Shown here: positions 18,176 to 20,144 of the stretch, piece after piece
Numbering within the stretch: position 1 is the first letter of the stretch
How the letters are laid out: each line of letters starts with the position of its first letter
Source: Thermoplasmata archaeon
GTDB lineage: Archaea; Thermoplasmatota; DTKX01; VGTL01
DNA: 64,000 nt
Assembly: GCA_038851035.1 (NCBI GenBank)
Contig: JAWCLH010000005.1
Coordinates: 51,251-115,250 of the forward strand
Direction of reading: 5' to 3'
Notes under the pieces: model-generated
Database searches by the model: none
What the model was told of the DNA's origin: nothing
What the model saw: the letters and a program-made list of their open reading frames with translations, nothing else
Made by a program: the position numbers and the translations under genes

Positions 18176-18249
18176 AGCCCCGTGGTGTAGTGGTAGCATA
18201 AGAGACTCTGGATCTCTAGGCACCAGTTCGACTCTGGTCGGGGCTGCCA
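18176..18249 (+). tRNA. tRNA-Gln (anticodon CUG) with G73 discriminator and genome-encoded CCA
   Basis: Manual fold: acceptor AGCCCCG/CGGGGCT, D-arm GTGT-AGTGGTA-GCAT, anticodon stem AGAGA/TCTCT with loop CTCTGGA (U33, CUG, G37), T-arm ACCAG-TTCGACT-CTGGT. Discriminator G followed by CCA. Confidence 0.75.
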
Positions 18250-18304
18250 TTCTCTGATAAACCTGGTTAAATTATAAGTAGGCGGCATCCAGTATGCAGG
18301 GGAG

Positions 18305-19990
18305 GTGGTGAGCGGGATGGAGGAAAAGGAGCCTGCATCTGACTTCATTAGGGAGATCATAAATGAGCACAATAGGACCGGGAGGTTCGGGGGGAGGGTC
18401 CACACACGATTCCCGCCCGAGCCGAACGGCTACCTGCACATCGGCCACGCGAAGTCGATATGCCTGAACTTCGGCATTGCGGAGGAATATGGCGGGAAGT
18501 GCAACCTCCGGTTCGACGACACCAATCCTGTCAAGGAGGAGCAGAAGTTCGTGGACTCAATAATTGAGGATGTGCGCTGGCTGGGTTTCGACTGGGAGGA
18601 TAGGCTATTCTTCGCCTCGGACTACTTTGAGAAAATGTATGAGTACGCTGTTCAATTAATAAAGGCCGGGAAGGCATATGTCGACGACCTCAGTGCGGAG
18701 GAGATAAGCAGAATGCGGGGCTCGCTGACGGAGCCCGGAACCCCCAGCCCCTTCCGCAACAGGAGCATCGAAGAGAACCTCGACCTCTTCGAGAGGATGC
18801 GCCGAGGAGAGTTCGAGACCGGGAGCAGAGTCCTGAGGGCGAAGATAGACATGTCCCACCCCAACATGAACATGAGGGACCCGGTGATGTATCGAATTCT
18901 GAAGGTCCCGCACCACAGGCAGGGCACGAAGTGGTGCATATATCCTACCTATGACTGGGCCCACGGGCTTGAGGACTCAATAGAGGGCATCACCCACTCC
19001 ATATGCACCCTTGAGTTCGAGGACCACAGACCCTTGTACGATTGGTTCCTCGACCAGTTGGGCGTCCACCACCCGCAGCAGATCGAGTTCGCCAGATTAA
19101 ACCTAAGCTATACAGTGATGAGTAAGAGAATGCTCAGGCAGCTCGTCGAGGAGGGGAGGGTCTCCGGCTGGGACGACCCCCGGCTGCCGACAATCAGTGG
19201 AATGAGGCGCCGGGGCTACTCGCCCGCCGGCATCAGGCTTTTCTGTAAGAGAATAGGCGTGGCAAAGGTCAACAGCACAGTGGACTTCGAATTCCTCGAG
19301 CACTGCATCCGGGAGGACCTGAATAAGACCTCCCCGCGATACATGGGCGTCCTCAGGCCCCTGAAGGTCGTTATCGAGAACTACCCGGAGGGCCAAGTGG
19401 AGGAGGTTGAGGTGATGGTCAACCCAGAGGACCCTTCCGCGGGAAAGAGAAAGGTCCCGTTCTCAAGGGAGCTCTATATCGAACAGGATGATTTTATGGA
19501 GAACCCGCCAAAGGACTTCTACAGACTCGCGCCCGGCCGCGAGGTCAGGCTTAGGGGTGCTTATCTCGTGACCTGCAGGGAGGCCGTGAAAAAAAATGGC
19601 AAGGTGGTCGAACTTAGGTGTACCGTGGACCCCGCGACGCGCGGTGGTAGTGCCCCGGACGGGAGGAAGGTGAAATCAACTCTGCACTGGGTGTCTGTCC
19701 CCCACGCCATAAGTGCGGAGGTGAGGCTTTACGATAAATTATTCACAGTCGAAGACCCGGCGGGGCAGGAGGGCCGGGACTTCAGGGAGTTCCTTAACCC
19801 CAAATCCCTCGAGGTTCTCACGGACTGCAAAGTCGAGGCTGCTCTGAAGAGGCTGAAGCCCCTAGACCGTATTCAGCTAGAGAGAGTCGGGTACTTCTGC
19901 GTGGATCCGGACACGACGCCCGAAAGACTCGTCCTGAACCTGACCGTGCGACTGAAGGATAGATGGAGCAAGAGCAGGTCTCAGGGGTGA
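18305..19990 (+). CDS. glnS: Glutaminyl-tRNA synthetase, bacterial type
   Basis: 561 aa. HIGH motif [23 protein letters not shown] and VMSKR (KMSKS variant). Long collinear stretches recognisable against E. coli GlnRS from memory ([91 protein letters not shown]). The C-terminal beta-barrel anticodon-binding region is present. Confidence 0.9.
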
Positions 19991-20071
19991 GAGGGCGAAC
20001 GAGGCCCAAGGAGGCGCCCTCCTGCAAATCTTTAATTACGGAAACGAAATTCGGCCCGGCGCAGTCAAAAA

Positions 20072-20144
20072 AGCCCCGTAGTGTAGAGGTCAATCATCCG
20101 GGGTCCTGCATCCCGGGACGGTGGTTCGAATCCACCCGGGGCTA
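20072..20144 (+). tRNA. tRNA-Gln-like gene (CUG at anticodon position), archaeal-type A73, no CCA, non-canonical anticodon loop; possibly a pseudogene
   Basis: Same acceptor stem as the upstream tRNA-Gln (AGCCCCG/CGGGGCT). T-arm GGTGG-TTCGAAT-CCACC, 6-7 bp anticodon stem CCGGGG/TCCCGG, loop TCCTGCA (C at position 33, C at 37 instead of U33/purine37). Discriminator A. Confidence 0.5.

Follow-up and report, generated by a model that had tools for sequence, protein, structure and literature searches.

How does an archaeon come to carry a glutaminyl-tRNA synthetase (GlnRS), and which tRNA would such an enzyme charge? All known archaea have been stated to lack GlnRS, owing to their idiosyncratic tRNAGln (PMC2330236, PMC9499178, PMC8762117), and a survey of >2500 genomes found no GlnRS in archaea (PMC5388404). 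The discriminator base and acceptor stem are GlnRS identity elements (PMC9976931). Archaeal tRNAGln has A73 whereas bacterial tRNAGln has G73, a difference regarded as a barrier to archaeal acquisition of GlnRS (PMC9499178, PMC2330236), and the Escherichia coli and yeast enzymes cannot charge archaeal tRNAGln (PMC2330236, PMC9499178). We analyzed a stretch of 64,000 nt from a Thermoplasmata archaeon (hereafter the window; contig JAWCLH010000005.1, positions 51,251 to 115,250, assembly GCA_038851035.1), in which a bacterial-type glnS gene lies between two differently built tRNA-Gln genes, called tRNA1 (upstream) and tRNA2 (downstream). Transfer of GlnRS to Archaea has received a passing mention (PMC8879553), and no published description of the Thermoplasmata GlnRS clade or its tRNAs was found in the literature searched. 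Taken as a whole, the locus is probably best explained as a three-part glutamine-decoding module, consisting of an old bacterial glnS, a partner tRNA with G73 and a retooled paralogue of the ancestral type.

The glnS product is a full-length, bacterial-type GlnRS, as the first-pass annotation of this DNA had proposed. It scores 718.1 bits against the GlnRS equivalog model TIGR00440 (cutoff 425.8), while the archaeal GluRS model TIGR00463 yields 376.9 bits, under its cutoff of 401.75, and in neighbor-joining (NJ) trees the protein falls in a clade of archaeal GlnRS. Three class-Ib domains (PF00749, PF03950 and PF20974) each match at full length. An end-to-end alignment with E. coli GlnRS gives 55% identity over 541 residues, and the protein also aligns at full length with P. 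aeruginosa 5BNZ (710 bits). It carries both class I signatures, LHIGHAKS (HIGH) and VMSKR (KMSKS). It is identical to the E. coli enzyme at the equivalents of R30, L136, Y211, C229, D235, Q255, R341, R402, R410 and Q517, which we take to be glutamine- and tRNA-binding residues. The R30 equivalent was located by pairwise alignment to E. coli GlnRS only, and the other binding residues were also tabulated across the clade; most of those tabulated are invariant or nearly so, with position 235 being D or N in archaeal and bacterial sequences.

The top-scoring NCBIfam model for this protein is NF011291 (855 bits), the GlnRS/YqeY fusion known from Deinococcus radiodurans (PDB 2HZ7), but the match covers only profile positions 10-560 of 769 and the protein ends at 557 aa, without a YqeY domain. 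Archaeal GlnRS proteins of 557-565 aa are already annotated in GenBank under the name 'glutamine--tRNA ligase/YqeY domain fusion protein', even though they have no YqeY domain; the name misleads because NF011291 is the best-scoring NCBIfam model.

The clearest clade-specific substitution is at the position of E. coli R130, which is Ser in 37 of 41 archaeal GlnRS (90%), versus R or K in 42 of 43 bacterial relatives. In the window enzyme this Ser is residue 131 (about 18707-18709). E. coli R130 belongs to the acceptor-binding region, where mischarging mutants of the E. coli enzyme map, and the Ser may be an adaptation to the altered acceptor stem (C3-G70), which we offer as a lead only. A second position, equivalent to E. 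coli R97, appeared to co-vary with the discriminator base, being F in 9/9 lineages with G73 and Y in 4/4 lineages with A73. We took this pattern as phylogenetic coincidence, because bacterial GlnRS, whose tRNAs have G73, include both F and Y.

The enzyme is neither recent nor confined to this genome. A protein search returned at least 120 GlnRS clusters (clustered at 90% identity) that are 75-100% identical to the window GlnRS, and every cluster with a named source comes from a Thermoplasmata, Thermoplasmatota, Thermoplasmatales or Methanomassiliicoccales archaeon. Three of the archaeal genes are on closed chromosomes of 3.2, 4.2 and 5.2 Mb. Among species-representative genomes, the two best matches (79%) were Thermoplasmata metagenome-assembled genomes, and the next, at 72-73% identity, were Dehalococcoidia, Phycisphaerae, Planctomycetota and Anaerolineae. 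In NJ trees rooted on E. coli, a single clade (bootstrap 100/100) unites all archaeal GlnRS and is nested in bacterial GlnRS of the Chloroflexota/Planctomycetota type. The archaeal enzymes are monophyletic and of bacterial ancestry, and a single bacterial origin of the clade is very probable. The simplest history would be one bacterium-to-archaeon transfer of glnS, followed by vertical descent. Vertical descent is supported by synteny, since the tRNA-glnS unit is closely preceded by the class I LysRS gene (lysK) in the window and in the related archaeal lineages that we label L161, L165, L175 and L177/178. The horizontal acquisition of glnS suggested at first pass is thereby upheld, as is its location in a truly archaeal genome, but the acquisition is old and clade-wide and does not belong to this genome alone. 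An origin from a mobile element or virus was considered and gained no support: a scan of viral contigs gave one distant match (57% identity, with no tRNA-Gln nearby), and the tRNA2 loop motif had no match.

We then asked what tRNAs accompany the enzyme. The upstream gene reads, segment by segment, AGCCCCG UG GUGU AGUGGUA GCAU A AGAGA CUCUGGA UCUCU AGGC ACCAG UUCGACU CUGGU CGGGGCU G CCA. Its acceptor stem is AGCCCCG/CGGGGCU with an A1-U72 pair, its D-loop has 7 nt and its variable loop 4 nt. The anticodon loop, C32-U33-C34-U35-G36-G37-A38 (18206-18212), holds a CUG anticodon (18208-18210) between canonical U33 and G37, and the tRNA ends in a G73 discriminator (18246) with an encoded CCA (18247-18249). 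ARAGORN, Rfam and direct reading all agree with the earlier description of a tRNA-Gln(CUG) with an archaeal A1-U72 body, G73 and encoded CCA. Compared to the archaeal tRNAGln set (A1-U72, A73 and a 4-nt variable loop), tRNA1 matches except for G73 in place of A73, and it appears to be a hybrid of an archaeal tRNAGln body and a bacterial discriminator. The gene is identical in L161 (74/74). CAG makes up 269 of the 298 Gln codons in the window's genes (90%), which argues that tRNA1 is the main Gln decoder, and the other 29 codons, all CAA, call for a UUG isoacceptor encoded in another part of the genome.

Both tRNA1 and glnS are preceded by promoter-like sequences. The block upstream of tRNA1 is kept in L161 (CGATTTCGTTATATA) and L172 (GCGATTTGGTTAAATA), while the remaining spacer is unalignable; it is probably the tRNA1 promoter and, being 70-95 nt upstream of the tRNA, implies a leader. 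The ATG at 18317 is the glnS start in the public record and follows a GGAGGTG motif (18301-18307). The distance of 55 bp between tRNA1 and glnS given at first pass holds for a GTG at 18305, and becomes 67 bp for this ATG. AT-rich, TATA-like blocks occur at the same site before glnS in L161, L162 and L172, and glnS likely has its own promoter there. A scan for sigma-70 promoters and intrinsic terminators found nothing above shuffled expectation, as expected for an archaeon.

We recovered the DNA around glnS for 18 archaeal lineages and compared it with 18 named bacterial loci. Two families of tRNA-Gln emerged. Type 1, to which tRNA1 belongs, combines a D-loop of 7-9 nt with a 3′ D-stem strand GCAU, C32 and a T stem of RCCRG/CYGGY. 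Type 2, to which tRNA2 belongs, has a D-loop ending in GGUCAA, UCAU, U32, a T stem of GGUGG/CCACC or GGCAG/CUGCC, and always A73. In 13 lineages the gene directly before glnS is a type-1 tRNA-Gln, and in seven (window, L161, L002, L177, L165, L166 and L081) a type-2 gene lies downstream of glnS; type 2 is a fragment in L167 and absent from the locus in the remaining lineages, and in L175 both flanking tRNAs are type 1 with A73. None of the 18 bacterial loci has a tRNA-Gln beside glnS, and the recurrence of the tRNA-glnS(-tRNA) layout in 13 related archaeal lineages therefore excludes a chance arrangement. Both types have undergone anticodon switches between CUG and UUG (L165, L167, L175 and L081). 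Across 17 distinct homologues the cloverleaf is well supported: 97.5% of cells pair, nine pairs have changed in both bases, and covariation as high as that observed arises in 0 of 500 shuffles.

The discriminator of the glnS-linked type-1 tRNA is G73 in 9 of the 13 lineages (window, L161, L165 in both its CUG and UUG copies, L166, L167, L168, L081, L083 and L084). G73 is found on all deep branches of the GlnRS tree, and A73 only in two derived subclades (L172; L002/L177/L175), so that on parsimony G73 would be ancestral in the linked tRNA and would have reverted to A73 twice. The earlier proposal of a tRNA adapted to GlnRS is borne out to this extent, that an archaeal body carries G73 in most lineages, but G73 is not obligatory. 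The encoded CCA, by comparison, appears to be a lineage quirk and not a bacterial signature: it is present only in tRNA1 of the window and in L161, and both the tRNA-Val of the window and tRNA2 are without it.

Several oddities surround the tRNA genes of other lineages. In the L165-L167 subclade, each type-1 gene is flanked by hairpins whose ends mimic the tRNAGln acceptor stem (AGCCCC...GGGGCU; L165 2760-3470, L166 3300-3480 and L167 3250-3480), which are absent from the window. The type-2 genes of L002 (5768-5869) and L177 (4774-4875) have a 28-29-nt hairpin insertion in the D-loop with compensatory changes between the two, which may represent a non-canonical intron or an additional arm. Both genes are missed by ARAGORN, and that of L177 has a G2.A71 mismatch.

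The downstream gene of the window, tRNA2, pairs an archaeal body with an anticodon loop that breaks the decoding consensus. It reads AGCCCCG UA GUGU AGAGGUCAA UCAU C CGGGG UCCUGCA UCCCG GGAC GGUGG UUCGAAU CCACC CGGGGCU A. The acceptor stem, with A1-U72, is that of tRNA1, the 9-nt D-loop ends in GGUCAA, the variable loop has 4 nt, and A73 (20144) is followed by UUG with no CCA; it thus has the full archaeal tRNAGln set, of the type used as a GatDE substrate. In its loop, U32-C33-C34-U35-G36-C37-A38 (20104-20110), the CUG (20106-20108) lies between C33 (20105) and C37 (20109). The combination of U33 and a purine at 37 that is canonical for elongator tRNAs is present in tRNA1 and absent from tRNA2 and its L161 orthologue. 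Direct reading confirms in each of these respects what had been noted before: the shared acceptor stem, A73, no CCA and a TCCTGCA loop that departs from U33 and purine 37.

Could tRNA2 be a normal tRNA of another identity? ARAGORN and Rfam both place it in the CUG register, and shifted loop registers yield no anticodon with U33 and purine 37. Weak Rfam matches to SpF41 and mascRNA (E about 0.6-0.7) were rejected as look-alikes of tRNA arms. A gathering scan of the whole window with Rfam misses tRNA2 and a scan of 2.5 kb scores it at 45.2 bits; the speed filters drop so atypical a tRNA when the search is larger, so that annotation pipelines may likewise miss it.

We compared tRNA2 with its L161 copy, using the linked glnS genes as a neutral standard. 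The two tRNAs are identical at 71 of 73 positions and have the same UCCUGCA loop, while glnS shows 41.5% identity at its four-fold degenerate sites (the GlnRS proteins are 85% identical); the probability of at least 71 identities at that neutral level is about 7e-25. Both differences are in the anticodon stem and keep pairing (G31-U39 becomes G31-C39 and G29-C41 becomes G29-U41 in L161), and all four stems are intact. This conservation indicates that tRNA2 is under purifying selection and contradicts the earlier suggestion of a decaying native copy. In all likelihood tRNA2 is functional. The promoter-like block 30-50 nt upstream of it is 21/21 identical in L161 (neutral sites ~41%). Its trailer can be aligned with that of L161 except for a 53-nt insertion in L161, while most other intergenic DNA is unalignable; the fold of the trailer (-31.4 kcal/mol, z = -1.7) is not significant alone.

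The altered loop is specific to the lineage of the window and L161, as U33 and G37 are kept in each of the 11 type-1 genes and in every other complete type-2 gene (four); the type-2 homologues of L002, L177, L165 and L166 have the canonical loop UUCUGGA. In RNAfold predictions for both the window and L161, U32-A38 and C26-G44 close, giving the anticodon arm a 7-bp stem and a CCUGC pentaloop. From this predicted fold and the loop bases, we judge it about as likely as not that tRNA2 decodes poorly or not at all. More tentatively, it may be a selectively maintained, non-decoding tRNAGln paralogue, with an archaeal body and a closed anticodon arm, that would work off the ribosome. It could then act on GlnRS or on GluRS/GatDE as a ligand or regulator, serve as a dedicated donor of Glu- or Gln-tRNA to a non-translational reaction, or be a decoy that diverts the old non-discriminating GluRS from the decoding tRNA, which that enzyme would otherwise mischarge.

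In L161, L165 and L166 the 3′ end of the type-2 gene recurs as a second, partial copy (T arm, 3′ strand of the acceptor stem and ~12 nt of trailer) about 100-135 nt downstream of the gene (L161 about 4804-4950, L165 about 5947-6076 with repeats to about 6290, L166 about 6015-6150). In L165 the last ~30 nt are repeated again, and the window has the spacer element without a second copy. These partial copies look like remnants of the attachment (att) sites of integrated elements.

How would the module work? In E. coli, GlnRS opens a weak 1-72 pair with Leu136, G73 stabilises the folded-back 3′ end, and the enzyme also reads 2-71, 3-70, G10 and the anticodon bases. The window enzyme is of the same family and architecture as the E. 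coli GlnRS:tRNAGln complex (PDB 1GTS/1QTQ family), with HIGH and VMSKR signatures, the glutamine pocket, L136, D235 and the anticodon-pocket residues in place, and tRNA1 resembles the E. coli partner in having G73, G2-C71, G10, U35, G36 and a weak 1-72 pair. The bacterial identity set is represented only in part: G2-C71, G10, U35 and G36 are present in both tRNAs of the window, which also have a weak but inverted A1-U72, C3-G70, G37 or C37, and A38. The system differs from that of E. coli in its archaeal host and in the archaeal body of tRNA1, where A1-U72, C3-G70 and G37/A38 take the place of U1-A72, G3-C70 and A37/U38, respectively, and the variable loop has 4 nt; it differs from bacterial relatives in the Ser substitution and from the 18 named bacterial loci in the flanking tRNA genes described above.

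We propose that a single bacterial GlnRS entered the ancestor of a large Thermoplasmata clade long ago and has since been inherited vertically, usually beside lysK. GlnRS would directly glutaminylate the co-located type-1 tRNA-Gln, an archaeal-bodied paralogue whose discriminator changed from A73 to G73. The Leu136 wedge would open the weak 1-72 pair, here A1-U72, G73 would stabilise the hairpinned 3′ end, and the splayed C34, U35 and G36 would be read by Arg and Gln pockets whose residues are conserved here. Because tRNA1 offers a weak A1-U72, G2-C71, G10, C34-U35-G36 and G73 to an enzyme with conserved contact residues, we infer that GlnRS charges it directly; that the type-1 tRNA is the partner of GlnRS, with G73 as an enabling change, is on balance likely. 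tRNA2 would derive from the ancestral-style family (A73, GGUCAA D-loop), its loop having become U-C-C-U-G-C-A in the lineage of the window and L161. Without a U33 U-turn or purine 37 it would form the 7-bp stem and 5-nt loop and probably decode poorly or not at all on the ribosome. It would be kept, with its promoter, for a function that depends on its body, and not for normal CAG decoding, which tRNA1 would cover.

Several observations weigh against parts of this proposal. The trees are NJ only, and bootstraps for the bacterial donor or sister group are below 40. The preference of GlnRS for type 1 over type 2 is argued solely from linkage and G73, the C3-G70, G37 and A38 of tRNA1 depart from the E. 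coli identity set, and type-1 tRNAs with A73 stand beside an intact glnS in 4 of 13 lineages (L172, L002, L177 and L175); either the enzymes of these lineages do not need G73, or they use other tRNAs. The non-decoding character of tRNA2 is drawn from the universal rule of U33 and purine 37 and from a thermodynamic fold, C33 is tolerated in some eukaryotic initiator tRNAs, and editing or modification of the tRNA2 loop is conceivable.

The alternative that survives best, though we consider it possible and not probable, is that two orthogonal pathways coexist. GlnRS would serve only the G73 type-1 tRNA, while a non-discriminating GluRS would still attach Glu to the A73 type-2 tRNA for GatDE to amidate; alternatively, type 2 would act in this lineage as a non-translational donor of Glu- or Gln-tRNA. 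Type 2 invariably has the archaeal tRNAGln features A73, A1-U72 and a 4-nt variable loop, and GatDE is reported to read A1-U72 and the D-loop (PMC2330236). It has been kept downstream of glnS in seven lineages, that of the window, whose loop does not suit decoding, is nonetheless under selection, and GatE is widespread in Thermoplasmata generally. The likeness to the indirect pathway of the M. thermautotrophicus type (non-discriminating GluRS plus GatDE) extends to both tRNAs, which share A1-U72 and the 4-nt variable loop, and to the A73 of tRNA2; the differences are the presence of GlnRS and the G73 of tRNA1. The distribution of type 2 fits this alternative less well: it is not at the locus in at least six lineages, is a remnant in L167, and in L175 the second flanking tRNA, too, is of type 1 with A73. 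No gatD, gatE or non-discriminating gltX gene occurs within the 64-kb window. A GatE bait matched real GatE proteins of many archaea (99% identity to a Thermococcus GatE), several of them from Thermoplasmata, and among the at least 120 matches listed none was tied to a GlnRS-bearing contig or genome. A transition from the indirect to the direct pathway, as first suggested for this locus, is plausible.

It is unlikely that both tRNAs are ordinary substrates of GlnRS and ordinary decoders, with the G73/A73 difference and the odd loop tolerated or corrected by editing or modification, and that glnS was inserted by chance into a tRNA-Gln cluster. The four lineages with an A73 type-1 tRNA beside an intact glnS would fit, as would the CUG/UUG switches within both types, which suggest a freely evolving gene family, and the lysK-tRNA-glnS synteny, which suggests insertion at a pre-existing tRNA site. 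Yet tRNA2 has replaced both near-universal U33 and purine 37 where the four other complete type-2 genes and the 11 type-1 genes have kept them, and G73, which is absent from normal archaeal tRNAGln (PMC9499178), is dominant here.

That tRNA2 is a pseudogene decaying after the takeover by GlnRS and tRNA1 is highly improbable. Its non-canonical loop and the loss or damage of type 2 elsewhere (the L167 remnant, the L177 mismatch, the loci from which it is absent) would agree with decay, but the identity to L161 relative to four-fold sites, the changes that keep pairing, the four intact stems and the unchanged promoter-like block speak against it. A recent exchange of the segment would not account for that identity, as non-coding flanks outside the short conserved blocks are not equally identical. 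Finally, contamination or a chimeric assembly, suggested only by closest non-archaeal homologues that are bacterial (72-73% identity), is extremely unlikely, as the same locus occurs in three independent assemblies, shares synteny of lysK and hutH with L161 and of lysK with L165, L175 and L177, is flanked by tRNAs with archaeal A1-U72 acceptor stems, belongs to a clade that includes closed archaeal chromosomes of 3-5 Mb, and shows no break in GC content.

The assembly evidence agrees with the earlier view that a misassembly was unlikely. Three contigs of NCBI 'Thermoplasmata archaeon' assemblies, including JAWCPG010000002.1 (GCA_038870335.1), encode exactly this GlnRS protein; two other assemblies contain an identical locus, and GCA_038848995.1 has the identical tRNA-glnS-tRNA stretch. 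The neighbouring genes are archaeal, with aIF5B, class I LysRS, the TrmI/GCD14 methyltransferase, A-type ATPase subunits I, E, C, A and B and a tRNA with an intron as markers; an Lhr helicase and a NiFe-hydrogenase cluster are encoded in the window as well. L161 retains the order lysK-hutH-tRNA-glnS-tRNA. In both genomes the ammonia-lyase gene is wedged between lysK and the tRNA-glnS unit on the other strand, with an 8-nt overlap between its 5′ end and the lysK stop. Elsewhere in the window, Rfam detects an intron-containing tRNA that ARAGORN misses, with anticodon GGU and U73, which is probably a tRNA-Thr. A secreted-type M1 peptidase gene breaks the order of the A-ATPase operon by lying between its A and B subunit genes, and other large PKD/M28 peptidase genes are also present.

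Table 1. Coordinates of the glnS locus and of other features in the 64,000-nt window
Feature	Position	Strand	Details
tRNA1, type-1 tRNA-Gln(CUG)	18176..18249	+	ARAGORN; Rfam RF00005 63.0 bits (gathering score 29)
glnS, glutaminyl-tRNA synthetase, bacterial type, without YqeY domain	18317..19990	+	557 aa; TIGR00440, Pfam, alignments
tRNA2, type-2 tRNA-Gln-like, CUG at anticodon position	20072..20144	+	ARAGORN; Rfam RF00005 45.2 bits (gathering score 29)
Promoter-like block GCGATTTCATTAAATA upstream of tRNA1, B recognition element (BRE)/TATA-like	18075..18090	+	archaeal promoter consensus
TATA-like TTAAATTATAA, candidate own glnS promoter	18267..18277	+	~40 nt before glnS start, then GGAGGTG; read from sequence
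Promoter-like block CTGCAAATCTTTAATTACGGA upstream of tRNA2	20022..20042	+	TATA TTTAATTA at 20031-20038, centre ~37 nt before tRNA 5′ end
Trailer element, hairpin-forming, downstream of tRNA2	20145..20215	+	T-run after it at about 20226-20232
lysK, class I LysRS	14908..16488		
Aromatic amino-acid/histidine ammonia-lyase (hutH)	16481..18013	other strand	between lysK and tRNA1
Intron-containing tRNA, probably tRNA-Thr	25689..25811	-	Rfam 57.4 bits; 53-nt insert after position 37
Secreted-type M1 peptidase, CARDB and PKD domains	44254..47469	-	1071 aa
A-ATPase subunit A gene	47486..49258		
A-ATPase subunit B gene	42855..44249		
Large PKD/M28 peptidase genes	12000..14585; 30442..33429; 9219..11993		

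Two further systems offer partial parallels. Helicobacter pylori GluRS2 and Acidithiobacillus GluRS1-GluRS2 also represent a lineage-specific split in Glx-tRNA charging that is decided by acceptor-stem features (PMC9976931); there, duplicated GluRS enzymes feed an amidotransferase in bacteria, while here an imported GlnRS meets duplicated tRNAs. Non-decoding tRNA-like RNAs such as mascRNA, which binds GlnRS (PMC9976931), recall the intact and selected body and off-consensus loop of tRNA2, but this is a resemblance only: mascRNA is eukaryotic, and its weak Rfam match (E = 0.62) reflects the T arm only. A tRNA can be kept for a role outside decoding, as is the case for the cell-wall tRNAGly of Staphylococcus aureus.

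Reviews from 2008-2022 state that no archaeon has GlnRS and put this down to an archaeal tRNAGln (A73, A1-U72) that does not suit the enzyme. A large clade of uncultured Thermoplasmata breaks this rule. Beside the imported glnS is a tRNAGln with exactly the predicted change from A73 to G73 on an otherwise archaeal body. The clade is a natural experiment in how an aminoacyl-tRNA synthetase crosses domains and in what separates the direct and indirect Gln pathways. It makes the proposed tRNA barrier directly testable, and the lineages that reverted to A73 are built-in controls. The GlnRS/tRNA pairs are also candidate orthogonal pairs for genetic-code engineering. The C33/C37 tRNA2 is a separate puzzle, a body held by selection without a decoding-type loop; if the proposal holds, a non-decoding tRNA2 would be a by-product of the first documented archaeal switch to direct Gln-tRNA synthesis.

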